Shown in pieces: positions 12,480 through 30,977 of a stretch of DNA of 64,000 bases. The translations under genes and the position numbers were made by a program. The notes beneath the pieces were generated by a model. The model ran no database searches. It was not told the DNA's origin and worked only from the letters and a program-made list of their open reading frames with translations. Source of the DNA: Acidimicrobiia bacterium (GTDB lineage: Bacteria; Actinomycetota; Acidimicrobiia; Spongiisociales; ZC4RG35); assembly GCA_035550735.1 (NCBI GenBank), contig DASZOM010000006.1, positions 6,984 through 70,983 of the forward strand, read 5' to 3'. Each line of letters opens with the position of its first letter. Within the stretch, counting starts at the first letter, position 1.

Positions 12480-13184
12480 ATGACTGCCGGCCGCGGCTTG
12501 CTATCTGACACAATTCAGGGCGTGCCCGTCGAGCCGCCCAGGTCCCGATTCGATCTACCCGATCCCAGTGCCGCCGACGGGGACGTGGTGGCGGTCGGTG
12601 GCGACCTGGAGGCAGGGACACTTCTCCAGGCATATCGAAGGGGGATGTTCCCCATGGACCTCCCCGACGGGCATCTGGGGTGGTGGTCACCGGTTGAGCG
12701 GGCGATCATCCCACTCAGCGGCCTGCGCGTGACCCGGTCGCTGCGACAGTCGACTCGTCGCTACTACATCACCGTCGACGAGGACTTCCTGTCGGTGATC
12801 CGCTGGTGCGCCGACATCGATCGGCCCAATGGCTGGATCACCGAGGAGGTGGTCGAGGCCTACACCACGTTGCACGATCTCGGCTGGGCCCACTCGATCG
12901 AGGTCTGGGATTCGGAGGGCTCGCTGGTCGGCGGGCTCTACGGAGTGGCCATCGGCGGGCTGTTCGCCGGGGAGAGCATGTTCCATCTGTCGAGGGACGC
13001 GTCCAAGGTGGCCCTGGTGCATCTGGTCGTGCTCATGAACCATGGTGGCAGCCTTCTCGATGTGCAGTGGCTGACCCCACATCTGGAGTCTCTTGGGGCG
13101 GTGGTCATCGGTCGCGACGAGTACCTGAGGCGTCTCCCCGAGGCTCTGTCCCGGCAAGGGCCGTTCGACAGGACCGGCGGTTAG
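12480..13184 (+). CDS. aat: leucyl/phenylalanyl-tRNA--protein transferase
   Basis: AYRRGMFPM, GWWSP..RAIIPL, GGLYGVAIGGLFAGESMFH, and KVALVHLV blocks. Start uncertain. Confidence 0.85.
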   Translation: MTAGRGLLSDTIQGVPVEPPRSRFDLPDPSAADGDVVAVGGDLEAGTLLQAYRRGMFPMDLPDGHLGWWSPVERAIIPLSGLRVTRSLRQSTRRYYITVDEDFLSVIRWCADIDRPNGWITEEVVEAYTTLHDLGWAHSIEVWDSEGSLVGGLYGVAIGGLFAGESMFHLSRDASKVALVHLVVLMNHGGSLLDVQWLTPHLESLGAVVIGRDEYLRRLPEALSRQGPFDRTGG

Positions 13185-13210
13185 AGTCGCCGCGTGCCTC
13201 CCGGAGCAGG

Positions 13211-14068
13211 ATGACGAGGACGTTCGTAGCGGGCATCGACCTGACCGCGATGGGCCGCAGAGTCGCCGACAGGGCCCGGCTCATGGCAGAGACCTCCGGG
13301 GGGACAGTCCATCTCCTCCATGTGCTCGAGCCGGTGGCGGAGGCCATGATCGAGCCCGGTCTGGCAAGGATCATGCGTGAGCATCAGAGGGCCGAGGCGG
13401 CCACCGTGGCGGAATGGCTGCGGGATAGATCCCAGGTCGACGTGGCGCTCGAGGTGGTGAAAGGGTCGCCTGCTTGGGAGATCGCCTCCCGGGCCAAGAA
13501 GGCCGAGATGGTGATTCTCGGCTCCTCCAGTGTTGATGCCTTCACCGCGGGACCGGTGACGCACCGGGTCGCCCGGATGGCGACATCCGACATCCTGGTG
13601 GTGCGTCGTCAACCCCGCGTTCCCTATCGAAGGGTCATCACGGCGGTCGACTTCTCCGAGGCGTCGCGACGCGCTATCGAGAGGTCGCTGGAGCTGTTTC
13701 CGGATTCCGAGATAACCGTCCTCTACTCGCTGCCCACACAGTTCGACTCACTCCTATCCGACGCCGGGCTCTTCCGGGAGGAGATGGATGCCTCACGAAG
13801 CGAGCGCATGGAGACCGCCCGTGACCGGATGCTGGAGTTCGCCCACCCATGGGGAGGCCGGGTGCGGACCCAGGTGGTGGACGGGCCGCCTGCGGAGACC
13901 ATCGACGAGACCGTGCGGCGACGCGGTGCGGACCTCGTCGTGGTGAGCAGCCGCGGTGCGACCGCCACCCGCATGGTCCTCCTGGGCACGGTGGCCGAGG
14001 GCCTGTTGGGCCGGGCGCCGTGTGACGTGCTGATCGTCAGGTCGGCGTCGAGCTTTCGCCGGCCCTGA
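13211..14068 (+). CDS. tandem universal stress protein (UspA x2)
   Basis: Two USP units (VHLLHV..., LGSSSVD..., VVVSSRGATAT...GTVAEGLLGRAPCDVLIV). The ATG at 13211 is used; the upstream part of the 420-aa track ORF is Arg-rich shadow overlapping aat. Confidence 0.85.
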   Translation: MTRTFVAGIDLTAMGRRVADRARLMAETSGGTVHLLHVLEPVAEAMIEPGLARIMREHQRAEAATVAEWLRDRSQVDVALEVVKGSPAWEIASRAKKAEMVILGSSSVDAFTAGPVTHRVARMATSDILVVRRQPRVPYRRVITAVDFSEASRRAIERSLELFPDSEITVLYSLPTQFDSLLSDAGLFREEMDASRSERMETARDRMLEFAHPWGGRVRTQVVDGPPAETIDETVRRRGADLVVVSSRGATATRMVLLGTVAEGLLGRAPCDVLIVRSASSFRRP

Positions 14069-14072
14069 TCGG

Positions 14073-14930
14073 TCAGATGCCAGCCAGTGCCTTCTTCACC
14101 GCCCTGGCGGCGAAGACCTTGGCCAGATGTGCCTTGTACTCCTCGGTGCCGTAGAGGTCTTCGAGGACCGTGATGCCGTCCGCCGCTCTCTCCGCAGCCG
14201 CCTTGATCGCCTCGTCCGAGCCATCGGTGCCGATGAGGGCTTCGCCCACGCCGGCGGCGAGCTGGGCGTGTGTGCCCACTCCGGTGATCGCCACCCGGGC
14301 ATCCTCGATCGTCCCGTTCGACTTTCGGACCCATGCCGCCGCGGCGGCGACCGCGTAGTCGGAGTGCCCGCCACGACGACCGAGCTTGTCATAGGCGGAG
14401 CCCTCACCCGGGCCGGCCTTGGGAATCCGTATCGACGTGAGGATCTCCTCCGGTGTCAGCGCACTGGTCAACGAGTCGACGAAGAAGTCAGCCGCGGCGA
14501 TCTCACGGGTCCCCGAAGCTGACGCCGCCACCATGACCGCGTTGCATGCGATCGCCGCCGCCGGCTGATCGGCGGCCACGTCTGCGTGGGCCAACGAGCC
14601 GCAGGTCGTCCCCCGGTTGCGCACCTGGACATCACCGGTCATCGACGCAGCCTCGGCGAGAGCGGCCGCATTGGCTCGCACCAGGTCGTGCGACATCGTG
14701 GTGCGATGACGCACCAAGGCGCCGATCTCGACATGATCCCCGGTGTCGTTCACCCCGTCGAGACCGCCGATCCGGCCGATGTCGACGAGGAGCGCAGGGG
14801 AGAACAGCCGCATCTTCATGAGGGGCAGCAGGCTCATGCCGCCCGCCATGACCTTTGCATCCTCGCCGAGCGCCCCGAGGGCCTCGTCGAGCGAGGTCGG
14901 TGCCACGTAGTCGAAAGCACGTGGATACAT
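14073..14930 (-). CDS. molybdenum hydroxylase FAD-binding subunit (CoxM/CutM-like)
   Basis: FDYVAPTSLDEALGAL...AGGMSLLPLMKMRL. Start overlaps the large-subunit stop by 1 nt. Confidence 0.85.
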   Translation of the reverse strand: MYPRAFDYVAPTSLDEALGALGEDAKVMAGGMSLLPLMKMRLFSPALLVDIGRIGGLDGVNDTGDHVEIGALVRHRTTMSHDLVRANAAALAEAASMTGDVQVRNRGTTCGSLAHADVAADQPAAAIACNAVMVAASASGTREIAAADFFVDSLTSALTPEEILTSIRIPKAGPGEGSAYDKLGRRGGHSDYAVAAAAAWVRKSNGTIEDARVAITGVGTHAQLAAGVGEALIGTDGSDEAIKAAAERAADGITVLEDLYGTEEYKAHLAKVFAARAVKKALAGI

Positions 14931-17308
14931 CAGCTCATCCTCGCTTCCTGAATCGCCGCCCAGACCTTCCTGGGACGTAGCGGCATGTCGATGTTCTTGA
15001 CCCCGAGCGGCGAAAGCGCGTCGATCACCGCATTGACCAGGGTGTGCGCCGAGCCGATCGTCCCGGCCTCACCGATCCCCTTCACACCCATCGGGTTGAT
15101 CGGAGAGGGAGTGACCGTGTGCGCCAGCTCGTACGAAGGCAAGTCCCCAGCCGTGGGCAGGGGATAGTCGATCAGCGACCCGGTCAGTAGGTTGCCGTTC
15201 TCGTCGAACAGGGCCTCTTCGAACATCGCCTGACCGATTCCCTGAGCCACGCCACCATGGATCTGGCCGTTGACGATCATCGGGTTGACCACGTTGCCGC
15301 AGTCGTCGACCGCCACGTACTTGAGGATCTCGACGTTGCCGGTGTCGGCGTCGACCTCTACGACGGCGAGATGCGTCCCGAACGGCCAGGTGGCGTTGCC
15401 CGGGCTGAACATCGACTGCGCCTCCAGACCCGACTCCACGCCCTCCGGGAGCGTGTGCGCCTGGTATGCGGCCTTGGCGATGTCGGCCCAATCGACCTTC
15501 TTGTCGGGCGAGCCGGCCACATGGGCCGCACCGTCGGCGAACTCGATGTCGTCTGCGGAGGCCTCGAGCATGTGGGCTGCGATCTGTGCCGCCTTGGCCT
15601 TCACCTGCTGGGTGGCCTGGTAGGCGGCCGCGCCGTCGACCGATATCGACCTGGAGCCGAACGTGCCGATCCCCATCGGGTGGTCACGGGTGTCGCCATG
15701 GTGGACCCTGACCCGATCGACCGGGATCCCCAAACCGTCCCCGACGATCTGGGACCACGTCGTCTCGTGGCCCTGACCGGTCGGGCCGGTGCCGATGATC
15801 ACCGTCACCGTCGCGTCCGGGTTGACCCGGACCAGGCCCGACCCGTTGAACGACGAGGGGAGGCCATAGGTGGCCCAAGAGAACCCGATCTCGGCGAGCA
15901 CAGCGGGCCCGAATCCGCACACCTCGACATAGGACCCGATGCCGATCCCGACATGACGTCCCTCGGCGCGGGCGTCGTCCCGCATCTTCAGCAAGCCCTG
16001 GTAGTCGGCGATCTCGATCAGCTTGTCCACCGCCGCGTCGTAGTTCCCCGAGTCGAGCGAGAACCCGCACCCCATCGTCGCCGGGAACTCATCGGGCTGC
16101 CAGAAGTTGCGACGACGCACCTCCAGTGGGTCCATCCCGATCTCCCGGGCGTATGCGTCGATGATGCGTTCCAGGTAGTAGATCGCCTCCGGCCGCCCCG
16201 CCCCGCGGTAGGCGTCGGTGGTCATCGTGTTGGTGACCACACAGTCGACCTTCCAACCGATAGGCATCTTGTACTGGCCCGAGGCGATCCAGAGACCGAG
16301 CAGCGGGATGGCGATGGTGAAATTCTGGTCGTAGGCGCCCATGTCTGCCAGCGCGTCGAGCTTGTAGCCGAGGAACTGGCCGTCCTTGGTGCCCACCAGG
16401 GTGGCGGTGCCCACCCAACCTCGTCCGTGGATGGTGGAGCTCGCCGCCTCCCGCCGGGTCTCGGTCCACTTGACCGTGCTGCCCAGCTCCCGTGCGACCC
16501 AGGCGGCGAGGATCTCGTCGTTGTAGACGTTGAGCTTGCAGCCGAATCCACCGCCGACCTCGGGGGCGATCACCCGGACATCCGAGGCCGCCACCCCGAG
16601 CATCTTGGAGATGGCGCCGCTCAGGGCGTGGGGGACCTGGGTGGAGCTGTGGACCGTGAAACGGCCATAACCGGGGTTGTACTCCGCCATCACCGATCTC
16701 GGCTCGATGGCAACCGGGATGAGACGCTGATTGGTCATCTCCATCGAGACCACGACCGCGTCGTCGCGCTGCATCGCCTCGTCGACCTGCGGTGTCTGGT
16801 CCTCCAGGCCCAATGCCGGCCAGTAGCCGTGGTACGTCCAGGTGAGGGTGATGTTGGAATCGAGGTCGTCGTGGACCTTGATCTCGTCGGTGGCCGCCTT
16901 TTTCAGATCGATCACCGCCGGCAGCACGTCATAGTCGACCTGGATCGCCTCGACGGCGTCCTGAGCCTGATAGCGGCTCTCTGCGACCACCAGGGCGACG
17001 GCCTCGCCGAGATGGTTGACCTGGCCGTCGGCGAGAAGTGGCCGCAGCTTGCCCGTTGTCACCTGGGCGAGCAGCGGGCCGAGATGGGCGACGTCGTCGT
17101 GTGTGTAGACCGCGACCACGCCCGGCATCGCCTTCGCCGCGCTGGTGTCGATCGAGTTGATCCTCGCCCTCGCCACCGGGGAGCGGTGGAAGGCCATGTG
17201 GAGAAGCCCGGTGGGGTTGAGGTCGTCGACGTAGAGACCGGTTCCCTGGATGAGAGCGGGGTCTTCCCGCCGGCGCACCGCCCCACCCATGACACTCGTG
17301 GTTGCCAT
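14930..17308 (-). CDS. molybdenum hydroxylase large subunit, form-II CoxL-like
   Basis: Xanthine-dehydrogenase-family large subunit. The active-site loop reads AYRGAGR, the form-II/putative signature, not the form-I AYxCSFR. Confidence 0.9.
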   Translation of the reverse strand: MATTSVMGGAVRRREDPALIQGTGLYVDDLNPTGLLHMAFHRSPVARARINSIDTSAAKAMPGVVAVYTHDDVAHLGPLLAQVTTGKLRPLLADGQVNHLGEAVALVVAESRYQAQDAVEAIQVDYDVLPAVIDLKKAATDEIKVHDDLDSNITLTWTYHGYWPALGLEDQTPQVDEAMQRDDAVVVSMEMTNQRLIPVAIEPRSVMAEYNPGYGRFTVHSSTQVPHALSGAISKMLGVAASDVRVIAPEVGGGFGCKLNVYNDEILAAWVARELGSTVKWTETRREAASSTIHGRGWVGTATLVGTKDGQFLGYKLDALADMGAYDQNFTIAIPLLGLWIASGQYKMPIGWKVDCVVTNTMTTDAYRGAGRPEAIYYLERIIDAYAREIGMDPLEVRRRNFWQPDEFPATMGCGFSLDSGNYDAAVDKLIEIADYQGLLKMRDDARAEGRHVGIGIGSYVEVCGFGPAVLAEIGFSWATYGLPSSFNGSGLVRVNPDATVTVIIGTGPTGQGHETTWSQIVGDGLGIPVDRVRVHHGDTRDHPMGIGTFGSRSISVDGAAAYQATQQVKAKAAQIAAHMLEASADDIEFADGAAHVAGSPDKKVDWADIAKAAYQAHTLPEGVESGLEAQSMFSPGNATWPFGTHLAVVEVDADTGNVEILKYVAVDDCGNVVNPMIVNGQIHGGVAQGIGQAMFEEALFDENGNLLTGSLIDYPLPTAGDLPSYELAHTVTPSPINPMGVKGIGEAGTIGSAHTLVNAVIDALSPLGVKNIDMPLRPRKVWAAIQEARMS

Positions 17309-17808
17309 CAGCTCATCCCTTCCCAGTCAGGTGGTGGCGGTTCTTCGCCACGGATCTTGGCCCCTGCATACTCGATGGCCCGAACGATGTTGTGATATCC
17401 GGTGCAGCGACACAGGTTGCCCTCGATGCCGTGGCGAATCTCGGCCTCGGTCGGGTTCGAGTTCTCATCGAGGAGGGCGACCGCGGCCATGATCATCCCC
17501 GGTGTGCAATAGCCGCACTGCAGCCCATGTCGCTCCCAGAACCCCTCCTGCACGGGGTGGAGCTGGCCGTTGTCGGCGAGACCCTCGATCGTGGTGATCT
17601 CTGCCCCATCCGCCTGCACGGCGAGCATGGTGCACGACTTGATCGCCATCCCGTCGAGATGAACGGTGCACGCCCCGCAGTAGCCCGTCTCACAGCCGAC
17701 ATGGGTCCCGGTGAGCCGGAGGTTCTCTCTGATGAAGTGGACCAACAGGGTCCTCGGCTCGACGTCGGCGGAGACGCTCCTGCCATTGACCGTCATCGAA
17801 ACTTCCAT
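17308..17808 (-). CDS. molybdenum hydroxylase [2Fe-2S] small subunit (CoxS-like)
   Basis: [12 protein letters not shown] and CGYCTPG...LCRCTGY cluster motifs. Confidence 0.9.
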
Positions 17809-17893
17809 GGGAAGACCCTTTCCGTAGGTCGGTCGAGATCACCGGAACATATCAACTGGCGACGGGGTGCGTGTTCCGAATCCCCTCGGATTC

Positions 17894-19252
17894 TCAGCGA
17901 CCGGATCGAGGCAGCGTGACCTGGAAGGTGGTGCCGGTCGCGCCCGTGGTCAGGTCGATGGAGCCACCGATCCTGTTGAGGATGGTGTGCACGGTGTGGA
18001 GCCCCAGCCCGGTTCCCTTGCCCGGTTCCTTCGTCGTGAAGAATGGGTCGAAGATGCGCGCTGTGACATGCTCGGGGATCCCCTGCCCGGTGTCGGAGAA
18101 CGTGACCACCAGCGAGTCGTCCATGTTGCGACTGGCGATGGTGAGTGTCCCTCCCGTCTCGGCCATGGCGTCGGCGGCGTTGTCGATCAGGTTGGTCCAC
18201 ACCTGATTGAGGTCCCGCCCGGGCACCTCGAGACGCGGGACCGGCTCCTCGAAGTCGAGCTCGACCTCGATGTCGGCGAGCTTGTGCTTGAGGAGAATCA
18301 GAGTGTCCCTTATGCCGTCGGTGGGGTCGATCTCCTGCACCGGGGCCCGGTCGACGAAGGAGTACTCCTTCACCACTCTCACCAACTCTGAGACCCGACG
18401 CGCCGCGATCACGAGCTCGGACATCACCTGTCTCGTCGCCAGGATCAGCCCGATCCAACGCACCTCGTGGGCCTTGAGCTCATCCGGGCTGTTCGCCACC
18501 ACCTCCTTCAATGTCTCGACCCTCCACCCCGCCTCGACCAGAGCCGGGGCGATCTGCCAGGGGTCCTCGACTCCGATCTCCTCGAGCCACGAGGCCAGCT
18601 CGTCCTCGGCCGCGGAGCGCTCCAGGGCAGACAGTGGCCGCTCCGGCTTCTCCACCGTCGCCAGGACGGTCGGATTGTCGTAGCCGGTGGCGAGCGCCTC
18701 GACCTCGCGGTCCAGCTCGCCGTGGAGCTTCGACAGCTCAGAAGTGCTTCGGGCCACGGCGGCAGCCGGGTTGTTCAGCTCGTGCATGAGCTGTGCCGCC
18801 ATCCGGCCGAGCGCGGCCATCCGCTCCTCGTGACGGAGGGTGTCCTCGATGCCGCGAAGGCGTGAGGTCACGGTGCGGAACATGCGGCGAACCACCCTGG
18901 GATCGCTGAGCAGATCCTCGAACGCGGCCACCGGGACGCGGATCACTGCGGAGTCGATCAGAGCGGTGACCGTCGCGGTGCGTGGCGCCTCGTCGAGAAG
19001 CGCGATCTCACCGACGACCTCGCCCGGGCCGATCCGGGCCAACTCCACATCCTTCGATGCGCTGTGCTTGGACACGGAGAGCTCCCCGGAGACCACCACG
19101 TACATCTCCCCGGACTCGGAGCCCTCATCGATGATGACCGTGTCCGCGGGGACCTCGATCAGCTCCGTCGACCTCGACACGCGCTCCAGGAGATCGTCGG
19201 GGAGATCGGTGAAGTAGGGCAGACCTCGCAGGACCTCTGAGATGTCGCTCAA
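17894..19252 (-). CDS. sensor histidine kinase with N-terminal cyclic-nucleotide-binding domain
   Basis: CNB domain (GEMYVVVSGELSV, GEVVGEIALLDEAPRTATV), H-box MHELNNP, and HATPase blocks (DNAADA, DTGQGI, GTGLGL). The TTG start overlaps the upstream stop (TTGA). Confidence 0.85.
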   Translation of the reverse strand: MSDISEVLRGLPYFTDLPDDLLERVSRSTELIEVPADTVIIDEGSESGEMYVVVSGELSVSKHSASKDVELARIGPGEVVGEIALLDEAPRTATVTALIDSAVIRVPVAAFEDLLSDPRVVRRMFRTVTSRLRGIEDTLRHEERMAALGRMAAQLMHELNNPAAAVARSTSELSKLHGELDREVEALATGYDNPTVLATVEKPERPLSALERSAAEDELASWLEEIGVEDPWQIAPALVEAGWRVETLKEVVANSPDELKAHEVRWIGLILATRQVMSELVIAARRVSELVRVVKEYSFVDRAPVQEIDPTDGIRDTLILLKHKLADIEVELDFEEPVPRLEVPGRDLNQVWTNLIDNAADAMAETGGTLTIASRNMDDSLVVTFSDTGQGIPEHVTARIFDPFFTTKEPGKGTGLGLHTVHTILNRIGGSIDLTTGATGTTFQVTLPRSGR

Positions 19253-20904
19253 AGCGAGGCGAGATGCTGGTGGATGAAGCGTATGGCCGTTGCCCCCTCA
19301 CCGGTTGCCCCCGCCACCCGCCTGATGGAGCCATGACGGACGTCCCCGGCTACGAAGATCCCCGGAACCGAGGACTCCAGGGGGAGGGGATCACGGTCGA
19401 CGTTCCAATCGATCAGGGGCCCCAGGTCGGCTCCGGTGAGGACGAAGCCCTTCTCGTCGAGTTGCACCAGGTCGCCGAGCCAGTCGGTCTGGGCTCTCTG
19501 GCCGATGAAGATGAACAGTGCGCCGGCCTTGTGCTCCCTCTGCTCGCCGCTCTCCAGATCCTCCACGACGAGTCGCTCGAGATGGCCTTCACCTTGCGCT
19601 GCGACGATGCGGGAACGGGTGAGCAGGGAGATCGTCTCCGTGGCATCGATGTTGTCGATCAGGTACTGGGACATTCCCTCGGTGAGGTCGCTGCCCCTGA
19701 TCACGATGGTCACCTCGTCGGTGAACCTGGTGAGGAACAGCGCCGCCTGGCCCGCCGAGTTCCCCCCGCCGACCACGAACATGGGCTGGTTGCGATGGTT
19801 CTCTGCTTCGAACGTCGACGTCCCGTAGTACACCCCGGCCCCGACCAGCTCGTCGAGCCCTTCGGCGGGAAGACGCCGGTACTCCACCCCGCTGGTGACC
19901 ACGAGGGCCTTGGCGGTGACGGTGCTGCCGTCGGCGAGATGGACGATCCGATAGGGATCCTTCCGCTCGACACGCTCCACCTTCGCCGGGACCAGGACCT
20001 CGGTGCCGAATCGTTGTGCTTGTGCGGATGCCCGCCGGGCCAGGTCTGATCCGCTGATCCCGCTCGGGAAACCCAGGTAGTTCTCTATCTTGGAGGACTG
20101 CCCGGCCTGGCCACCGGGCGCCGAGGACTCGATGAGAAGCGTCTTCAGCCCCTCCGAGGCACCGTAGACGGCGGCGGCGAGACCGGCCGGCCCGGCGCCG
20201 ACGATGACGACGTCGTAGGTAGGTGAGGTGGCCTGGGTCTTCAACCCCATCCGGTCGGCCAGCTGCTGGATGCTCGGCTTGAGCAGATAGCCGCCGTCGG
20301 GGAAGACGAGGAGGGGGAGATCGGTGTTGGACGCCCCGACGGCGGAGACGAGCTGTTCCGCCTCGGGATCCACGCCGACGGTGAAAGAGCGGTAGGGGAG
20401 CTGGTTCATCGCGAGGAAGCCCTTGAGCTCGAAGACATCCCGTGACCATGCGCTCCCGACCACGCGCACCCCTTCGAAGCTGGGGCGGAAGGAGGCTCGC
20501 CAGTCGAGGAGTAGGTCGTCGAGTATCGGATAGAGCTTCTCCTCAGGTGGATCCCAGGGTTTCATGATGTAGTGGTCGAGGCCGACCTGGTTAATGGCGT
20601 CGATGGCCGCATCGGTGTCCGCGTATGCGGTGAGCAGGGTCTTCTTGGTCTCCGGGAAGAGAGGAATCGACTCGCGCAGGACATCGATGCCCGTCACCCT
20701 CGGCATGCGCTGATCGGCGACGATCAAGGCGAGTGGCGTGCCCCGCACCGAGAGATCCTTGAGGACCTCGATGGCCTCCTCCCCGCTGGTGGCTCCCAAC
20801 ACGGAGTACTCGTCTGCGTAGTGGGCGCGGAGGTCGCGCTGGACGGCACGCATCACCTCGGGCTCGTCGTCGATGGCGAGGATGGCCGGCTTGACGGTGG
20901 TCAT
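19249..20904 (-). CDS. response-regulator receiver fused to a thioredoxin-fold linker and a TrxR-like FAD/NAD(P) flavoprotein, cysteine-free
   Basis: REC blocks (ILAIDDEPE, LIVADQRMP, KTLLTAY, IMKPW), then YDVVIVGAGPAGLAAAVYG and FVVGGGNSAGQAALFL Rossmann motifs and GIFVAGDV. The ATG at 20904 overlaps the zf-UBP stop (ATGA). Confidence 0.85.
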   Translation of the reverse strand: MTTVKPAILAIDDEPEVMRAVQRDLRAHYADEYSVLGATSGEEAIEVLKDLSVRGTPLALIVADQRMPRVTGIDVLRESIPLFPETKKTLLTAYADTDAAIDAINQVGLDHYIMKPWDPPEEKLYPILDDLLLDWRASFRPSFEGVRVVGSAWSRDVFELKGFLAMNQLPYRSFTVGVDPEAEQLVSAVGASNTDLPLLVFPDGGYLLKPSIQQLADRMGLKTQATSPTYDVVIVGAGPAGLAAAVYGASEGLKTLLIESSAPGGQAGQSSKIENYLGFPSGISGSDLARRASAQAQRFGTEVLVPAKVERVERKDPYRIVHLADGSTVTAKALVVTSGVEYRRLPAEGLDELVGAGVYYGTSTFEAENHRNQPMFVVGGGNSAGQAALFLTRFTDEVTIVIRGSDLTEGMSQYLIDNIDATETISLLTRSRIVAAQGEGHLERLVVEDLESGEQREHKAGALFIFIGQRAQTDWLGDLVQLDEKGFVLTGADLGPLIDWNVDRDPLPLESSVPGIFVAGDVRHGSIRRVAGATGEGATAIRFIHQHLASL

Positions 20905-21167
20905 GCCCTGAACAACTGGTCCTCGAAGCAGTAGCGCCAGCTCTCTCCGGGCTCGACCGACGTGATCAGGGGATGGCCCTCGTTCTCCCAATGGTGTCGG
21001 GCGTGCCGGTTCTTCGAGACGTCACAACACCCGACACGCCCACAGACGAGGCAGGCACGGAGATGGACCCAGGTGTCGCCGGCCTCGACACATTGATCGC
21101 AGACCCTGGAGAGCGGGGAGACGACGGTGGACAGGCTCTCGAAGTGCTCACATGTCTGTGTTGGCAA
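20901..21167 (-). CDS. UBP-type zinc-finger protein
   Basis: CEH...CDQC...WVHLRACLVCGRVGCCD...RHARHH...HP pattern typical of zf-UBP. 88 aa. Confidence 0.8.
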   Translation of the reverse strand: MPTQTCEHFESLSTVVSPLSRVCDQCVEAGDTWVHLRACLVCGRVGCCDVSKNRHARHHWENEGHPLITSVEPGESWRYCFEDQLFRA

Positions 21168-21305
21168 TGCACACCACCTTCCGCAGCCAACCGGGACCCT
21201 CGACCTTGCTTTCGATCATATTGGCTCCTGGGGGAGTCGCCACTCGTGGGTCTGCTAAATCTTGTCGCCAGGAGGGCCGATTTGCCGGAGCAGGACTCGA
21301 TAGAA

Positions 21306-21611
21306 GTGCGTGACGTGCCCGAGCGGCACGCCTACGTCGTCACTGTCGACGGGGTCGAGGCGGGCATGGCCGTCTATCACATCCGCGGTGGCCGCCATAT
21401 CTTCGTCCACACCGAGGTCGACGAGCAGTACTCGGGTCTGGGAGTAGGTAGCAGGCTGGTCCGCGCCGCCCTCGAGGATGTACGGGCACAGGGTGGGTCG
21501 CTCGTCGCGCTGTGCCCGTTCGTGTCTGCCTACATGAGACGTCATCCCGAGTTCGACGATCTCGTCGACCGGGAGATGACCGAGCAACTGGAGAGACGAC
21601 GTGAGAGCTGA
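21306..21611 (+). CDS. small GNAT-like N-acetyltransferase (YjdJ-type)
   Basis: ...VDGVEAGMAVYHIRGGRHIFVHTEVDEQYSGLGVGSRLVRAALEDVRAQGGSLVALCPFV. The GTG at 21306 is chosen; the upstream part of the track ORF overlaps the divergent operon. Confidence 0.65.
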   Translation: MRDVPERHAYVVTVDGVEAGMAVYHIRGGRHIFVHTEVDEQYSGLGVGSRLVRAALEDVRAQGGSLVALCPFVSAYMRRHPEFDDLVDREMTEQLERRRES

Positions 21612-21647
21612 TCCGGCATATGGAGTCGCGGCTTCGCTCCGATCTCA

Positions 21648-24275
21648 ATGGGATGGCGGAGGGCTCGAGTGATGCTGCCGACCGGCACGGTCACCTTCGT
21701 GTTCACGGACATCGAGGACTCCACCGGTTTGGCCCAACGCCTCGGTGATAGTGACTTCTCGAGGCTGGTCGACCTCCACAACTCAGTGATCCGCGCCGTC
21801 GTCGAGCGACACGGAGGTGTCGAGGTTGCGACCGAGGGAGATGCCGTCTTCACCGTCTTCGAGGACCCTCTCGCCGCGGTGACCGCAACCGTCGACATCC
21901 AAGACGCCATCGACAACGCCGAATGGGAGAGTAGAGAGGAGCCGAGAGTGCGAATCGGCGTCCACACGGGGCAAGGCTCGCTCGGGGGCGACAACTACGT
22001 CGGTCTCGACGTCCACAAGGCGAGTCGCATCGCCAACTGCGGCAATGGAGCCCAGATCCTGCTCTCGGACACCACCGCCCACCTCGTGGAGGATCGTCTT
22101 CCCGACGGTGTGACGGTGCGCACACTCGGCAGGTATCGGCTCTCCGGTTTCCCGAGTGCGGTGCCCATCCACCAACTCGAATGGCCCGGGTCACCTGGCC
22201 AGTACCCGGAGTTGCGCGCACCACGTGCCGAATCACGTGTCCCCGTCCCGCTCTCCGACTTCATCGGCCGGGAAGAGGAGATATCGCGGGCCCTCGCGGT
22301 GCTGGGCGAGAGCCGACTGGTCACACTGACCGGCCCGGGTGGCACCGGCAAGACCAGGCTGTCGCTGGAGCTGGCACGAAGGGTCGAGCCTGACCTTCCC
22401 GACGGAGCCGTGTTCGTGACTCTGGCTGCGGTCCGCGACCCCGATCTCATCCCGGCGACCATCCTCGACGCCCTGGGACTGAAAACGGCCGGAGGCATCG
22501 ACCCCCTGGTCCATCTCGAGCGTCACCTCGCGGACAAGACGATGCTGCTCGTGATCGACAACTTCGAGCAGGTAGTGCGGGGCGCAGGGATCGTGGTGCG
22601 GATACTCGAGTCCGCTGCAGGCGTGAAGGTGCTCGTCAGCTCGCGGATACCGCTTCGGGTGTTCGGCGAGCGGGAATTCCCCGTGCCGCCACTCGATGTC
22701 CCCGACCCGGCAGCGGACCTGTCCCGGGTCGAGGAGAGCGCCGGGGTGCGCCTGTTCGTGACCCGTGCCGAGGCGGTGCGCCCCGGTTTTCACCTCGACG
22801 AGTCGAATGCGGGCACGGTGGCGACGATCGCGCGGTCGCTCGACGGGCTGCCGTTGGCGATCGAGCTCGCCGCTTCCCGCATGCGCAGCCTCACCCCGGA
22901 GGCGATCCTGGAGCGTCTCGACAACCGGCTCCTCGCCGCCGATGCCCCGGATCGGCCCCAGCGCCAGCAGACGATCGTCAACGCCATCGGATGGAGCTAC
23001 GACCTGCTCGACGAGCCGACGCGGCGTCTATTCGAAGACCTGTCCGCTTTCGTGGGCGAATTCGGGCTGCCCGAGGCGGAGGCCCTCTGTCGCTTGTCGA
23101 GCTCCCCGATCGATGTCATCGACGGGATCACCCATCTGGTGGATCACAGCCTGCTTCGACAGACCCAGACCAGCGGTGATCCGAGGTTCCGGATGCTGAC
23201 CGTCATCCGCGACTTCGGCTACGGGGCCTTGGTGGCGCGGGGTGACGAGGCCGAGATCGTCAAGCGACACGGGGAGGTGTACCTCGCCGTCGCGGAGTCC
23301 GCGGCCCCCGAGATCCTCACCTCTCGTCAGCAGTACTGGCTGCGACGGCTCGCCGCCGATCACGACAACCTGCGAGCCGCCTACGACCGTGCCCTGGATC
23401 GCGGCGACGTAACCACGGCGATGAGGCTTGGAGCGAGCCTTTGGCGCTTCTGGCAGATCAGGGGGCATCTAGCCGAGGGCAGGGAACGTCTCGAGCGCGT
23501 CCTCATCGGTGGCGGTGAAGTCGATCCCTTGCTGAGAGCGCGCGCCCTGACGGGGATGGCCGGAATCATCTACTGGCAAGGAGGATTGGAGGAGCTCCTC
23601 CCGGTCTACGAAGAGGCATTGGACCTGTTCCGGGAGCATGGGGTCGAGTCGGATGTCGCCGAGGGCCTGTACAACCTGGCTTTTCCTTGCGCCTACGTTG
23701 GCGAGATCGACCGTGCCAAGTCATTGCTCAACGAGGCGATGGACATGTGGGAGCGGATCGGAGACGATCAAGGCGTGGCCCGGGCGCTGTGGGGGCTTGG
23801 AGTGGTGTTCAGCTATTCGGATGACCATGAGAGAGTCATCGAGCACGCTGCTCGGTCGGTCGAGGTCTTCGAGGGCCTCGACGCGCCCTTCGATCTGGGA
23901 TGGGCCCTGTTCATGGAGGCACAGGCCAACGCCAAGCTCGGCCGGTTCGAGGAGGCCGAGCGATTACTGGCGAGGGCTTTGGAGATCTTCGCAGGGGTGA
24001 GCGATGTCTCGGCGCTGACGCTCATCACGGAAGTGACCGTCCTCTTAGCCGTGGCCAGGGAAGACCGTGCCGCGGCCGGGTTCCTCGCAGGTGCCGCCCA
24101 TCGATTGAAGGCAGACACCGGTGTCGAGATCGGCGATGTCCGGCTGAACCAGTTCCCCCAGGTAGAGGCGTTCCTCAGTGAGCGCGACGAGGCGTTGGAA
24201 ACCGCTTTCCAAGAGGGTTTCGCCTCCGGGCTCGACGATGTGATCGCGAGGGCCAGGGCTCTGCTTCGGTCGTGA
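21648..24275 (+). CDS. class III adenylate/guanylate cyclase - P-loop NTPase (STAND) - TPR protein
   Basis: Cyclase blocks GTVTFVFTDIEDST, ATEGDAVFTVF, and VRIGVHTGQ. Walker A LTGPGGTGKTRL and Walker B LLVIDNFEQ. The C-terminal ~300 aa are TPR-like repeats. No HTH was seen. Confidence 0.85.
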   Translation: MGWRRARVMLPTGTVTFVFTDIEDSTGLAQRLGDSDFSRLVDLHNSVIRAVVERHGGVEVATEGDAVFTVFEDPLAAVTATVDIQDAIDNAEWESREEPRVRIGVHTGQGSLGGDNYVGLDVHKASRIANCGNGAQILLSDTTAHLVEDRLPDGVTVRTLGRYRLSGFPSAVPIHQLEWPGSPGQYPELRAPRAESRVPVPLSDFIGREEEISRALAVLGESRLVTLTGPGGTGKTRLSLELARRVEPDLPDGAVFVTLAAVRDPDLIPATILDALGLKTAGGIDPLVHLERHLADKTMLLVIDNFEQVVRGAGIVVRILESAAGVKVLVSSRIPLRVFGEREFPVPPLDVPDPAADLSRVEESAGVRLFVTRAEAVRPGFHLDESNAGTVATIARSLDGLPLAIELAASRMRSLTPEAILERLDNRLLAADAPDRPQRQQTIVNAIGWSYDLLDEPTRRLFEDLSAFVGEFGLPEAEALCRLSSSPIDVIDGITHLVDHSLLRQTQTSGDPRFRMLTVIRDFGYGALVARGDEAEIVKRHGEVYLAVAESAAPEILTSRQQYWLRRLAADHDNLRAAYDRALDRGDVTTAMRLGASLWRFWQIRGHLAEGRERLERVLIGGGEVDPLLRARALTGMAGIIYWQGGLEELLPVYEEALDLFREHGVESDVAEGLYNLAFPCAYVGEIDRAKSLLNEAMDMWERIGDDQGVARALWGLGVVFSYSDDHERVIEHAARSVEVFEGLDAPFDLGWALFMEAQANAKLGRFEEAERLLARALEIFAGVSDVSALTLITEVTVLLAVAREDRAAAGFLAGAAHRLKADTGVEIGDVRLNQFPQVEAFLSERDEALETAFQEGFASGLDDVIARARALLRS

Positions 24276-24403: not shown

Positions 24404-24823
24404 ATGGAAATCGATCGTCAGGGCCCGGCTGATGTAGAGCGGGTTATCGCCGCGGGGAATCTCTTCGACCATCCCCCGAAGAGGGACCTGGTCGAGAGCT
24501 TTCTCGCCCGGGATGGACATCACCTGATCTTCGCGAACGTGGATGGAGTCGACGTCGGCTTCGTGAGCGGCGTCGAGATCGCCCATCCCGACAAGAGAGT
24601 GGAAATGCTGCTCTACGAACTGGGCGTGGACGAACCTCACCGAGGACGGGGCATCGGGCGGGCCCTGACCCTGGCACTCGTCGCAGTGGCGGTAGAGGCC
24701 GGTTGCCGTGGCATGTGGGTGACGACCGAAGGAGACAACGAGGCCGCACTGGCTACATACCGGTCCGCGGGAGCATCCGGGCCCGAATCGGGTGTCATCC
24801 TCGAATGGCGCTTCGACGACTGA
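24404..24823 (+). CDS. GNAT-family N-acetyltransferase
   Basis: Acetyl-CoA motif HRGRGIGRALTLALV plus the NEAALATYRSAG block. The ATG lies 5 nt after the tRNA CCA end. Confidence 0.75.
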   Translation: MEIDRQGPADVERVIAAGNLFDHPPKRDLVESFLARDGHHLIFANVDGVDVGFVSGVEIAHPDKRVEMLLYELGVDEPHRGRGIGRALTLALVAVAVEAGCRGMWVTTEGDNEAALATYRSAGASGPESGVILEWRFDD

Positions 24824-24840
24824 ACAGGAACCCGTTGCCA

Positions 24841-24868
24841 TGTCGAAATCCGCGATCCTTTGTTCGTC
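24841..24868 (+). promoter_or_regulatory. candidate ECF42-type promoter (TGTCGA-N18-CGTC)
   Basis: TGTCGA at 24841-24846 and CGTC at 24865-24868, 40 nt upstream of the YCII ATG. The motif is assigned from recollection of the published ECF42 consensus. Confidence 0.3.
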
Positions 24869-24908
24869 GTATTCGAGCAAGCATTCCTCCGTCGAGAAGG
24901 GAGAAGAG

Positions 24909-25281
24909 GATGCCCCGTTATGCAGCTCTCATCTATGTGACTGAGGACGACGATCCCTCGGACCAGGCAACGAACGACGCGGTGATGGCCGACTACAACG
25001 CGTTCACCGCGGCGGTGACCGCAGCCGGCGTCATCGCCGGAGGGGAGGCGTTGGAGCCGACGAGCACCGCGACCACGGTTCATGTCGAGGGTGGGAAGGG
25101 CGGGAAGGTCGTTCACACCGATGGCCCGTACGCGGAGACCAAGGAAGTCCTCGGCGGGTTCTACCTGCTCGACTGTGCCGACCTCGACGAGGCCCTGGAC
25201 TGGGCTGCCCAGATCCCGGGCGCCTGGCACGGGCTGGTGGAGGTCCGCCCGGTCGTCGACTTCAGCCAGGGTGGGCAGTGA
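24909..25281 (+). CDS. YCII-related (DGPF) domain protein
   Basis: MPRYAALIY...TDGPYAETKEVLGGFYLLDCADLDEALDWAAQIP. Confidence 0.85.
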
Positions 25282-26504
25282 CAGTCGAGGAGACGATACG
25301 AGTAGAGGGTGGCCGGATCCTGGCCACCCTCATTCGATTGACCCGCGACTTCGACCTTGCCCAGGACGCACTCCAGGAGGCCGCGGTCACAGCCCTCGAG
25401 CAATGGACCGCCAGGGGCATTCCCGAGAGCCCGGCCGCGTGGCTGACGACGGTCTCCAGACGCAAGGCGCTCGATCTGATGCGTCGGGAAGGGCGACGTC
25501 GGGCCAAGGAGGGGGAAGCACAGATGACGCTGCTGATCGGAGCAGAGGAGGACGGCGCCGGTGACGACCGCCTCCGCTTGATATTCACCTGTTGTCACCC
25601 TGCGCTCTCGCCCGAAACCCGGGTGATGCTGACCCTTCGCACCATCGGCGGGCTCAACACCCATGAGATCGCCCGGGTGTTCCTGCTCAACGAGGCCACG
25701 GTCGGGCAAAGGATCAGCCGTGCCAAGAGGAAGATCTCGGTGGCAGGGATTCCCTACCGGATCCCTGCGGGCCACGAGCTGCCTGATCGGCTCCCCGCAG
25801 TGCTCGGCACGCTCTATCTGATGTTCACCACGGGCCATCATGCCATCGCAGGCCGTCTCGACTCCCGTGTCGATCTCGCCGACGAGTCGATACGTCTCAC
25901 CCGCATGCTGTCGACCCTGATGCCCGACGAACCGGAGGTGCACGGCCTGCTCGCCCTGATGTTGGCCACGCATGCTCGACGTGCCGCCCGGGTCGATGCG
26001 CGTGGTCATCTCGTGCTGCTTCCCGATCAGGACCGGTCTCTCTGGGATCACGCAGCCATCGACGAGGCCAAGACGATCGTGGAGCGGGCTCTCCGTCTTC
26101 GCCGCGCCGGGGCCTATCAGATCGAGGCGGCGATCGCTTGTCTCCATGGGCGAGCCCCCTCCGACGAGGAGACCGACTGGGCGCAGATCGTGGATCTCTA
26201 CCGGGCGTTGGAGAGAATCGAGCCGGGACCGGTGACCACTGTCAATCGGGCGGTGGCCGAGTCGAAGGTGACAGGCCCGGCCGCCGGACTAGCCCTGCTC
26301 GAGGGTGTCGACGACGTCGAGCATTGGCATCTCTATTGGGCGGTTCGTGCCGAGCTGCAACGGCAACTGGGAGACATGACGGGGGCTTCTCGCGCCTACG
26401 AGCGCGCCCTGGCGTGCGAGATGAACGACTCCGACAGGGATCACCTCCAGCTTCGCCTCGAGTCACTGCCCGGAACGACGGGGGTTCCGTCGATCAGGGC
26501 CTGA
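25278..26504 (+). CDS. ECF sigma factor with long C-terminal TPR-like extension (ECF42-type)
   Basis: Sigma-2 region (DLAQDALQEAAVTALEQW) and sigma-4 region (LTLRTIGGLNTHEIARVFLLNEATVGQRISRAKRKI), plus a ~220-aa extension. The GTG start overlaps the YCII stop. Confidence 0.85.
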   Translation: MTVEETIRVEGGRILATLIRLTRDFDLAQDALQEAAVTALEQWTARGIPESPAAWLTTVSRRKALDLMRREGRRRAKEGEAQMTLLIGAEEDGAGDDRLRLIFTCCHPALSPETRVMLTLRTIGGLNTHEIARVFLLNEATVGQRISRAKRKISVAGIPYRIPAGHELPDRLPAVLGTLYLMFTTGHHAIAGRLDSRVDLADESIRLTRMLSTLMPDEPEVHGLLALMLATHARRAARVDARGHLVLLPDQDRSLWDHAAIDEAKTIVERALRLRRAGAYQIEAAIACLHGRAPSDEETDWAQIVDLYRALERIEPGPVTTVNRAVAESKVTGPAAGLALLEGVDDVEHWHLYWAVRAELQRQLGDMTGASRAYERALACEMNDSDRDHLQLRLESLPGTTGVPSIRA

Positions 26505-28872: not shown

Positions 28873-30261
28873 TTGACGACCGTGGCAAACACCGAGCGGC
28901 GCGTCGTGATCGTCGCCAATCGTCTGCCCATCGCCTACGACGCGAAGTCCGGGGAATGGGCCACCAGCCCGGGCGGACTCGTCTCGGCGCTGACCCCGAT
29001 CTTGCAGCAGACAAAAGGGAGCTGGGTCGGCTGGAGTGGGGTGGCCGGACGGAGGTTCAAGCCGTTTCTCCACTCCGGGATCAACCAGGTGCCGGTGACC
29101 TTGAGCCAGGAGGAGTACGAGGAGTTCTACGTCGGCTTCTGCAACGGCACGCTCTGGCCCCTCTATCACGACGCCTTGCGAACGCCCCAGTTCCACCGTC
29201 ACTGGTGGAGGCCTTACGAAAAGGTGAACCGGCGCTTCGCCGACATTGCGGCCGAGGCCCTGACCAAGAATGACGTCGCCTGGGTCCAGGACTACCAACT
29301 GCAACTCGTGCCCAAGATGATCAGGGACGCGATGAAGGTGCACCGGATCGGCTTCTATCTGCACATCCCGTTCCCGCCGGTGGAGCTCTTTGCCAAGCTG
29401 CCCTGGAGACGACAGGTGCTCGAAGGGCTCCTCGGCTCCGATGTGCTCGCCTTCCAGTCACGCTCCAGTCGGACCAATTTCGCCGTCGCCGCCCGGCGAA
29501 TCAGCGGTGCCACCGGCTCATCCACCAGATTGGAATGGGAAGGGAGGACGATCCTCCTCCAAGTTGCGCCGATCGGCATCGATACCGACGTTTTCGACGA
29601 CATGGCCGAATCGGAGGAGACGGCTCGACGCGCCACCCGGATCAGAGCCCGTCTCGGTGATCCCGACGTGGTCATTCTCGGTGTCGATCGTCTCGACTAC
29701 ACCAAAGGGATCGATTTGCGGATGCGAGCGCTCCAACAACTTCTCGAGCGGCGCAGGGACCTTCGGGGCCGGGTCGTGTTCGTCCAGATCGCGGTGCCCA
29801 GCCGCGAGGATGTGGCCGAGTACCGGAAGATCAGAGAGGACATCGAAGGGCTGGTCGGCCGGATCAACGGAGATCTCGCGGAGGTCGGGCGCCCGCCGAT
29901 CCACTACCTCTATCGGAGCGTCCCATTCGACGAGCTCGTGGCGTACTACAGGGCGGCCGACGTGATGTTCGTGACCCCGTTGCGCGACGGGATGAACCTG
30001 GTCGCCAAGGAATACGTGGCCACCCGGTTCGACGACACCGGCTCGTTGATCCTCAGCGAGTTCGCCGGAGCCGCCGAGCAGCTCAAAGAGGCTCACATAG
30101 TCAACCCGTACGACCTCGACGGACTGGCGTCGACCCTCGAGGAGGCGATCGAGACCGCATCGGTGCGGGGCAACGAGCAGATGAAGGCGCTGCGCCGCTC
30201 GGTGGGAGCCCATGACGTCTTCTGGTGGGCCGAGAGGTGTCTCGGGGCTCTGGGACTTTGA
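28873..30261 (+). CDS. otsA: trehalose-6-phosphate synthase (GT20)
   Basis: VIVANRLP..., [42 protein letters not shown] start. Confidence 0.92.
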
Positions 30262-30977
30262 CGCTGCGTGAGGCGATAGAAGACCTCCTACGGCACCGGC
30301 CCGTGCTGGTGGGCGTCGACTTCGACGGCACACTCGCCCCACTGGTCGACCATCCGTCCCTGGCGGAGCCTGACGCCACCGCGATCGAGATCCTGGTTCG
30401 GCTCGCCGCCCGGCCGGGGATGACCGTGGCGGTGGTCTCGGGAAGGTCCCTGGCAGATCTGAGGGAGCGGCTCGGTGACGTCCCGGGTGCGATCTTCATC
30501 GGCGAGCATGGCAACGACACCGGCGAGCCAGCCACCCCCGGCCCGGTGCTCGAGGAGGCAATCCGCCTGGTCGCCGATGTGGTAGCGGCCACGCCCGGCT
30601 CGATCTTCGAGACGAAGCCCAACTCGGTCAGCTTTCACTATCGAAACGTCGAGCCCGGGAACGAGGTGGAGGTCCTGGAGCGGCTTCGTGCCTTCGCCGA
30701 CGCCAGACCGGACCTCTCATGGCTCGAGGGCAAGACCGTGGTCGAAATCAGCACCGGCGGCATGAACAAGGGCGCCGCCATGCGGGAGCTGGCCGGCGAG
30801 GAGGGGCGGATCCTCTACATCGGCGACGACACCACCGACGAGACGGTGTTCGCACAGCTCGGCCCCGCGGACGTCGGCATCAAGGTGGGGCCGGGGGAGA
30901 CCAAGGCGGAGTTTCGAGTCGACGACGTGGCGGGGGTCGTTGAAGTCCTGGAGGTGATCGACCTAACTTCGGCGTGA
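30225..30977 (+). CDS. otsB: trehalose-6-phosphate phosphatase (HAD)
   Basis: VGVDFDGTLAP HAD motif I, KGAAMREL, and YIGDDTTDE motif. The start is uncertain because it overlaps the otsA 3' end. Confidence 0.85.
   Translation: MGREVSRGSGTLTLREAIEDLLRHRPVLVGVDFDGTLAPLVDHPSLAEPDATAIEILVRLAARPGMTVAVVSGRSLADLRERLGDVPGAIFIGEHGNDTGEPATPGPVLEEAIRLVADVVAATPGSIFETKPNSVSFHYRNVEPGNEVEVLERLRAFADARPDLSWLEGKTVVEISTGGMNKGAAMRELAGEEGRILYIGDDTTDETVFAQLGPADVGIKVGPGETKAEFRVDDVAGVVEVLEVIDLTSA

Follow-up and report, generated by a model that had tools for sequence, protein, structure and literature searches.

Fusions of a receiver (REC) domain to a thioredoxin reductase (TrxR) have been catalogued but not characterized: Galperin's census lists the architecture “REC-thioredoxin reductase” and calls it “Mycobacterium-like” (PMC5847659), and our full-text literature search turned up neither functional work on the REC form nor any comment on the missing cysteines. 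Enzymology has been reported for ATII-TrxR, a 552-amino-acid (aa) protein that joins a cyclic nucleoside monophosphate (cNMP)-binding domain to TrxB and is 87% identical to a C. metallidurans protein (PMC6544261). It was described as a flavin adenine dinucleotide (FAD)-containing dimer oxidizing NADPH (kcat 9 per s) and NADH, over a range of 2-9 per s, in a study that does not address the missing CxxC (PMC6544261). Here we analyze a response regulator of the REC form encoded in a 64,000-nucleotide stretch, referred to as the window, of an Acidimicrobiia bacterium genome (GCA_035550735.1, contig DASZOM010000006.1, positions 6,984 to 70,983). Judged by alignments and predicted folds, its output part descends from a fusion of a low-Mr (low relative molecular mass) TrxR with an NrdH/mycoredoxin-like redoxin, and both dithiols have been lost family-wide. 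The family is catalogued, uncharacterized and partly misannotated, and the regulator is an ordinary member of it. The gene and the parts of its product are as follows, with residue numbers of the regulator.

19249..20904, minus strand: response regulator gene, with REC, degenerate glutaredoxin (Grx)-like and TrxR-like domains, 551 aa, 0 Cys (open reading frame [ORF] and translation; Pfam; AlphaFold2 [AF2])
20536..20889, minus strand: REC domain, residues 6-123, with D12/D13, phospho-acceptor D64 (20713-20715), T92 and K115 (Pfam, 9.5e-14)
20239..20475, minus strand: degenerate Grx-like middle domain (glutaredoxin/NrdH/mycoredoxin-like), residues 144-222 (profile match to PDB 2lqo; Pfam Glutaredoxin; AF2; Foldseek)
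20434-20448, minus strand: former W-C-x-x-C of the Grx-like domain, now W153-S-R-D-V157 (alignment to mycoredoxin-1)
20302-20322, minus strand: retained cis-Pro loop, D-L-P197 (P197 at least 90% conserved)
19252..20223, minus strand: low-Mr TrxR-like FAD/NAD(P)H domain, residues 228-551 (PDB 4gcm; TIGR01292; Foldseek)
20182..20199, minus strand: FAD-binding GxGxxG, G236-A-G-P-A-G241
19804..19836, minus strand: family motif G-V-Y-Y-G-T-S-T-F-E-A (357-367), which replaces G-V-S-x-C-A-T-C-D-G of TrxR (alignments)
19741..19770, minus strand: NAD(P)H-binding GGGNSAGQAA (379-388)

The 551-aa product contains no cysteine and its ORF no in-frame TGY codon, as a first-pass annotation made from the sequence had stated; that annotation also placed the gene correctly, while it missed the minus strand, the operon and a sister architecture with a cNMP-binding domain. 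Pfam recognizes Response_reg at residues 8-120 and Pyr_redox_2 at 230-537, and a full-length AF2 model, with 110 diverse relatives as input, reached a predicted local distance difference test (pLDDT) score of 95.7 and a predicted template-modeling score of 0.91. Cysteine makes up 0.71% of the residues in window proteins and 9 of 39 have none, the partner kinase among them, so a total absence is not unusual in this cysteine-poor genome (one cysteine-free protein, at 45136..47184, is 682 aa long). The significant point, as far as the alignments tell, is instead the loss of cysteine at two catalytic sites, conserved across the family.

The best solved relatives of the TrxR-like domain are genuine TrxRs (4gcm, E = 1e-47, ~31% identity by HMMER). 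In the HMMER alignments the CAVCDG of solved TrxRs falls on Y-G-T-S-T-F-E-A, directly upstream of GGGNSAGQ, and MAFFT sets C135, C138 and D139 of Escherichia coli TrxB opposite T362, F365 and E366. The earlier proposal that the CxxC had been replaced just upstream of the NADPH motif is borne out by both alignments. With no cysteine in the protein, intramolecular dithiol-disulfide chemistry is impossible, as had also been argued, and the label of thioredoxin-disulfide reductase, anticipated to be wrong, is unjustified: besides the lack of a CxxC, the model of that name, TIGR01292, scores the domain at 228.2 bits, below its cutoff of 343.45.

The survey of homologous fusions that the first-pass annotation had proposed found no CxxC at the TrxR site in any of 322 relatives, nor at the Grx site in any of 273, counting all sequences gathered. 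The 120 closest homologues, at least 70% identical and, where named, from Acidimicrobiia metagenome-assembled genomes, carry G-V-Y-Y-G-T-S-x-I-E-A at the TrxR site; 112 of them contain no cysteine and 8 contain one. Of 1.8 billion cluster representatives searched, 3,341 matched at E <= 1e-30, and among the best 150 (36-60% identical), which we analyzed, all intact members show G-V-[YF]-Y-G-A-x-x-x-E-A where TrxR has its CxxC segment and x-W-S-x where Grx has its CxxC. Hundreds of orthologues keep the same motifs at 36-87% identity, and the family alignment contains no conserved cysteine column among REC-type members. The loss first noticed in this protein is therefore real, but it is a trait of a very large family and not of this protein alone.

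The cofactor sites have been retained. In 110 family sequences (mean column identity 23%), G236, G238 and G241 of the FAD motif, G265, Q266, and G379 and N382 of the NAD(P)H motif are invariant, and conservation is at least 90% at S383-A388 (SAGQAA), R403 and G520-D521; by this measure purifying selection on the FAD and NAD(P)H sites is strong. Of HRRxxxR, the NADPH 2'-phosphate site of TrxR, R403 (within 19690-19704) alone survives, in a region that reads I-R-G-S-D-L in the regulator and V-R-G in the family consensus. With Foldseek the full-length model matched TrxR in the flavin-reducing (FR) state (5mh4) at a target-normalized TM score (TMt) of 0.95, and in the flavin-oxidizing (FO) state (5mjk) at 0.65. 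In the FR state of TrxR, NADPH faces the flavin.

The middle domain had been described as a Grx/Trx fold without a CxxC. The fold was recovered by three routes: two AF2 models, one full-length and one of the domain alone (pLDDT 93.0), give residues 146-218 the topology beta-alpha-beta-alpha-beta-beta-alpha; a profile of the segment matches Mycobacterium tuberculosis mycoredoxin-1 (Mrx1; 2lqo) at E = 1.6e-10; and the best Foldseek matches of the domain-only model are Mrx1, the thioredoxin (Trx)-like protein BC3987 of Bacillus cereus, Grx and NrdH (TM 0.7-0.85, root mean square deviation [rmsd] of ~1.8 A). The superpositions on TrxR and Grx suggested at the outset thus both hold, while the register given for the lost site, S151-A-W-S154, was three residues off. 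W-C-G-Y-C of Mrx1 aligns to W-S-x-x-S in the family and to W-S-R-D-V in the regulator, which makes S154-R-D-V157 the true counterpart. The Pfam Glutaredoxin model is matched by 10 of 31 family members. The change of C-x-x-C into S-x-x-[S/V] leaves no possibility of thiol-disulfide exchange within the domain. NrdH and BC3987 are physiological TrxR substrates, and since they are among the closest structural relatives, they suggest for the two domains an ancestor in which a reductase was joined to the redoxin that it reduced.

At the other end of the protein, the REC domain has the full catalytic set: D12, D13, D64, T92 and K115 are invariant among close relatives, and the nearest receiver sequences are of the HD-GYP/RpfG type. 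On these residues the protein is a bona fide response regulator.

The Grx/TrxR-like module is found with more than one sensor. An N-terminal REC domain is present in 101 of the 150 representatives, and in at least 22 a cNMP-binding domain, confirmed by Pfam in 7, occupies the exact position of REC, so that by sequence the sister architecture is cNMP-binding followed by the Grx-like and TrxR-like domains. One protein of 714 aa (P0125) has REC, Grx-like, TrxR-like and cNMP-binding domains in that order, as if the beginning of the neighboring kinase had been fused to it; another of 703 aa (P0132) has a SnoaL_2 domain N-terminal to the module. A single cysteine at the column of H370, five residues past the conserved Glu (E-A-x-x-C), occurs in 24 of 37 (~65%) cNMP-type and unclassified representatives. 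The column holds His in the clade of the window and is variable among other REC-type members, and its cysteine may mark a functional split inside the family. When one genome per species was scanned, relatives turned up in at least 593 species, spread over many phyla and including Streptomyces, Catenulispora, Dactylosporangium, Anabaena, Nostoc, Hymenobacter, Dyadobacter, Chitinophaga, Chryseobacterium, Caballeronia and Deinococcus, members of the Burkholderiales, and many Acidobacteriota, Gemmatimonadota and Chloroflexota.

The genes surrounding the regulator provide a signaling context, of which the following parts are needed here.

20901..21167, minus strand: first operon gene, for a UBP-type zinc-finger (zf-UBP) protein of 88 aa with 8 Cys (Pfam zf-UBP, 8e-13; PDB 2ida, 4e-22)
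17894..19252, minus strand: partner histidine kinase of 452 aa, also with 0 Cys; cNMP-binding domain at the N-terminus, followed by HATPase_c (Pfam, sequence)
18974-19012, minus strand: canonical phosphate-binding cassette of the kinase, G-E-I-A-L-L-D-E-A-P-R-T-A (sequence)
18767-18784, minus strand: H-box of the kinase, HELNNP (sequence)
21648..24275, plus strand: class III adenylate/guanylate cyclase-STAND ATPase-TPR protein, 875 aa (Pfam Guanylate_cyc, AAA_16/22, TPR_12)

The regulator gene shares bases with its neighbors at both ends: its ATG at 20904 with the stop of the upstream zf-UBP gene (ATGA), and its stop with the TTG at which the downstream kinase gene starts (TTGA); the overlaps indicate that the three genes are translationally coupled. 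Scans of 17600-21700 for promoters and terminators found nothing and are uninformative at 66% GC. A homologous kinase gene (~465 aa; E = 1e-47 to 1e-158 against the window kinase) adjoins the regulator gene on the same strand, often overlapping it, in ~68 of 80 REC-type loci, a pairing that spans Actinomycetota, Cyanobacteria, Bacteroidota, Acidobacteriota, Gemmatimonadota, Chloroflexota and Burkholderiales. A zf-UBP gene lies within ~3.5 kb, often overlapping, in 21 of the 80, from seven phyla, and in S. fungicidicus it overlaps the gene of the kinase. The zf-UBP protein keeps its Cys/His ligands in 21 orthologues; the solved bacterial homologue, 2ida, has no assigned function. The zf-UBP gene also lies directly upstream of cNMP-type genes in Streptomyces angustmyceticus, Rhodococcus and Rhizobium johnstonii. 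Because it recurs beside both REC-type and cNMP-type genes, it is linked to the Grx/TrxR-like module itself and not to the two-component parts. On large plasmids of S. angustmyceticus (L087) and Rhodococcus sp. PD04 (L091) the order is cbpM-clpB-trxA-zfUBP followed by the cNMP-type gene, which links the cNMP-type module to thioredoxin and heat-shock chaperones. All-against-all ORF clustering of the 80 loci found no conserved neighbor besides the kinase and zf-UBP; one apparent extra cluster was rejected as an antisense-ORF artifact of high-GC DNA. The conserved module, as gene neighborhoods define it, is zf-UBP, the regulator and a cNMP-binding histidine kinase.

Eight partner kinases from diverse phyla were tested, and each has a cNMP_binding domain at its N-terminus, in six of them above the Pfam cutoff. 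The cyclase gene, ~0.5 kb upstream of the operon, is encoded on the opposite strand, and its product, in which no DNA-binding domain was detected, is the likely source of the cyclic nucleotide that the kinase would sense. Similar cyclases lie near the module at four other loci (L001, L003, L010 and L027), those of L001 and L003 being larger (1,221-1,265 aa). Taken with the canonical cassette of the kinase, this arrangement suggests that the upstream signal in this genome is probably cyclic AMP (cAMP).

The model that we favor, to which we assign a probability of about one half, is that the regulator has a phosphorylation-gated, non-dithiol NAD(P)H flavoenzyme as its output. In this model the output would take hydride from NAD(P)H onto FAD and hand electrons directly to a non-disulfide acceptor, candidates being the co-encoded zf-UBP metalloprotein, a ferredoxin-like protein, a quinone or O2. 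Phosphorylation of D64 would gate the electron flux, and the dead Grx-like domain together with the conserved Tyr-rich G-V-Y-Y-G-A...E-A surface, in which Glu stands for the acid catalyst, would dock or gate internally, as Trx does on TrxR. cAMP from the neighboring class III cyclase would be read by the canonical cNMP site of the kinase, and in the sister architecture the direct fusion of a cNMP domain to the module would bypass the phosphorelay.

Several observations weigh against this model. The gene neighborhoods offer no conserved redox partner apart from the kinase and zf-UBP. The conserved cofactor sites fit a sensor of NAD(P)H or redox state equally well, and the likeness to the FR state comes from a predicted model. 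The cAMP input cannot be generalized to the family, because most partner kinases outside the clade of the window keep an N-terminal domain of the cNMP_binding fold but lack the cAMP-binding (phosphate-binding) Arg: the canonical cassette, G-E-x-A-L-x5-P-R-[ST]-A, is kept only in that clade, and among the partner kinases of the other loci (L007-L084) the one from Nostoc reads F-G-E-I-P-V-L-T-D-E-P-V-P-V-T. The ligand of kinases without the Arg may not be a cyclic nucleotide. Finally, ATII-TrxR, a cNMP-type relative, was reported to reduce Trx and DTNB [5,5'-dithiobis(2-nitrobenzoic acid)] (PMC6544261); if this is correct, the fold can support thiol chemistry by another route. The homologue in C. 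metallidurans CH34 reads G-V-Y-Y-W-A-S-P-V-E-A-K-L-C, with no CxxC. Of the cysteines numbered 206, 223, 376 and 467 in ATII-TrxR, only the first two fit this homologue (at an offset of 11), and membership of ATII-TrxR in the family is therefore a probable one, argued from domain architecture alone. By alignment, the single cysteine of many cNMP-type relatives is in any case not available to the regulator, which has His370 at that column.

A possible but somewhat doubtful alternative is that the Grx/TrxR-like part is a pseudoenzyme that binds FAD and NAD(P)(H) to report redox or nucleotide state without net electron transfer, providing a second input through which REC phosphorylation, the kinase or a partner protein would be modulated. 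The absence of both catalytic dithiols and of a conserved redox substrate gene nearby would be explained at once, as would the placement of the protein between signaling domains, and the conserved surface motif that stands where the active-site loop was suggests a protein interface. What tells against a purely sensory role is that the hydride-transfer apparatus, with both Rossmann motifs and the GD motif, is strictly conserved across phyla, whereas pseudoenzymes usually lose cofactor motifs, and that the probable relative ATII-TrxR turns over NAD(P)H at the rates given above (PMC6544261).

It is quite unlikely, in our judgment, that the regulator is still a disulfide reductase whose thiols are supplied in trans, the flavin reducing a disulfide outside the enzyme. 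Three candidates for that disulfide can be named: a low-molecular-weight disulfide held on the Grx-like domain, as proposed for YpdA; a CxxC pair of zf-UBP; or a Trx docked at the former place of the CxxC. The Cys-rich, translationally coupled zf-UBP protein has two conserved CxxC pairs, but its cysteines are canonical Zn ligands. The Grx-like domain retains the cis-Pro substrate loop and resembles the TrxR substrates NrdH and BC3987, yet the YpdA model scores the regulator at only 62 bits against a cutoff of 340. The actinobacterial plasmid order clpB-trxA-zfUBP followed by the cNMP-type gene brings a Trx close to the module, but we know of no firm precedent in the TrxR fold for direct transfer from flavin to an external disulfide. 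The reported reduction of DTNB and Trx by ATII-TrxR speaks for such chemistry (PMC6544261), with the reservations that this protein is a probable relative and that its study is silent on the missing CxxC.

That the gene is an artifact of sequencing or frame error, or a decaying TrxB fusion, has next to no chance of being true and is refuted by the conservation data: the ORF is intact, with a third-position GC content (GC3) of 0.83, it is coupled to its neighbors on both sides, its orthologues are conserved, its model is of high confidence, and nothing was found in favor of decay. A public protein listed as identical and relatives at 70-87% identity share the TrxR-site motif, so no frameshift or sequencing error is indicated, and the error restoring cysteine codons that the first-pass annotation had named as its possible refutation was not seen. 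The start codon is sound as well, since the homologues likewise have 551 aa and the ATG overlaps the zf-UBP stop. A cluster representative listed as 100% identical (P0001) has a single substitution relative to the regulator, Gly190 to Glu, within the Grx-like domain.

A more specific proposal concerns zf-UBP. We regard it as unlikely, though worth stating, that a flavoenzyme gated by cyclic nucleotide or phosphorelay moves NAD(P)H electrons to zf-UBP, or reads its redox or metal state, with the redox center thus lying in trans. If true, second-messenger signaling would be turned into redox signaling by protein, in gene neighborhoods of a stress or dormancy type across many phyla. The weight of our findings would grow substantially if zf-UBP were the redox partner, and the association already provides a first functional lead for the bacterial UBP-type zinc-finger proteins, represented by 2ida.

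The wider neighborhood contains other genes. A molybdenum hydroxylase operon (14073..17808, minus strand) follows the kinase gene on the same strand after an 85-bp gap and encodes a 2Fe-2S subunit of 166 aa, a molybdenum cofactor (MoCo) large subunit of 792 aa and an FAD subunit of 285 aa. The large subunit carries A-Y-R-G-A-G-R, which we take to be a form-II CoxL-type signature. Its synteny with the module holds at other loci of Acidimicrobiia and Actinomycetes (L001, L003/4) and not in other phyla; at L005 a homologous MoCo large subunit lies upstream. A small GNAT gene (Acetyltransf_CG, ~21255..21611, plus strand) diverges from the operon. GNAT genes recur near the module, as do genes for LtrA (low-temperature requirement A), an MBL-fold hydrolase, PAS proteins and universal stress proteins (in Acidimicrobiia, Streptomyces and Deinococcus, including L001, L003 and L086), and these recurrent neighbors hint at a stress or dormancy neighborhood. 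Further plus-strand genes near the module, at 12806..14068, 24703..26504 and 28873..32587, encode a tandem universal stress protein, a YCII-domain protein beside an ECF-type sigma factor with DUF6596, and a trehalose cluster of OtsA (GT20), trehalose phosphatase and an alpha-amylase-family enzyme.

Current names do not convey these properties. JGI calls these proteins “thioredoxin reductase (NADPH)”, and RefSeq calls those of the REC form “FAD-dependent oxidoreductase” but gives many cNMP-fused relatives a name ending in “thioredoxin-disulfide reductase”. Thousands of proteins in the at least 593 species, from Streptomyces and Nostoc/Anabaena to Hymenobacter, Deinococcus and Burkholderiales, bear a TrxR label that their sequences contradict. 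The family is among the few output classes of response regulators without a known function; it is an example of a TrxR-redoxin fusion repurposed after the loss of both dithiols, and a possible link between cAMP or two-component signaling and NAD(P)H/flavin redox chemistry.

Comparison with known systems places the regulator near several of them. It shares with TrxB (EC 1.8.1.9) the two-Rossmann FAD/NAD(P)H fold, the GxGxxG, GGGxxA and GD motifs, an acidic residue (E366) at the acid catalyst Asp139, and its best sequence and structure matches. It differs in lacking the CxxC, in keeping one Arg of HRRxxxR and in its REC and Grx-like N-terminal fusions, and with the missing CxxC and the subthreshold TIGR01292 score it cannot be identified as TrxB. 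AhpF, the next-best NCBIfam match, likewise has a Trx-fold domain directly upstream of a TrxR-like core, but it has two such domains where the regulator has one; the regulator has neither CxxC, no peroxiredoxin partner is encoded nearby, and the domains, as arranged in the model, fail to superpose on those of AhpF (rmsd 19-29 A). The AhpF models score 152-167 bits against cutoffs of 503-688, and this identity was rejected, given also the lack of cysteine and the single Grx-like domain. YpdA/Bdr bacillithiol disulfide reductase was rejected on its TIGR04018 score.

The closest working analogy is with TrxR-type ferredoxin/flavodoxin-NADP+ reductases (FNRs) such as Bacillus subtilis YumC and the Chlorobaculum enzyme, which have the TrxR fold without a CxxC, whose FAD, once reduced by NAD(P)H, gives its electrons to an acceptor that is not a thiol, and which have no sensor or Grx-like domains. 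The first-pass annotation had proposed that the domain acts either like these enzymes or as a non-catalytic redox/nucleotide sensor, which is plausible; membership in the FNR family is not borne out: FNR 3lzw scores 70 bits (1e-18) against the TrxR-like domain where TrxR scores 166, no FNR model is among the top NCBIfam matches, and the regulator ends 9 residues past the aligned core, its last helix (530-550) being the terminus in the AF2 model, whereas 3lzw continues for 24. Both the affinity to TrxR and the lack of a C-terminal flavin-stacking extension led us to reject it. A Pycsar or other anti-phage role was also rejected, the PADLOC matches being to the generic cNMP domain of the kinase and, weakly, to the cyclase fold, with none for the regulator or zf-UBP.

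Among signaling proteins, CheB, RpfG and PleD/WspR resemble the regulator in that a phospho-accepting REC controls a fused enzyme domain; the output of the regulator differs in being a flavoprotein oxidoreductase fold. Mrx1, NrdH-redoxin and BC3987, several of which are reduced by TrxR, share with the middle domain its fold, a detectable homology, the Trp that precedes the active site, and the loop with the cis-Pro, but the regulator has neither CxxC nor CxxS. The cNMP-fused relatives, ATII-TrxR (PMC6544261) among them, share the Grx/TrxR-like module at 40-48% identity, the motif G-V-Y-Y-x-A...E-A, the absence of a CxxC and, in several genomes, the zf-UBP neighbor. They differ in carrying a fused cNMP sensor where the regulator has REC and a separate cNMP-binding kinase, in the frequent single cysteine at the H370 column, and in the thiol chemistry reported for one of them. 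The family is a variant of the TrxR-fold flavoproteins in which a dead redoxin and a Cys-free core are combined with a REC or cNMP sensor and a recurrent zf-UBP protein.

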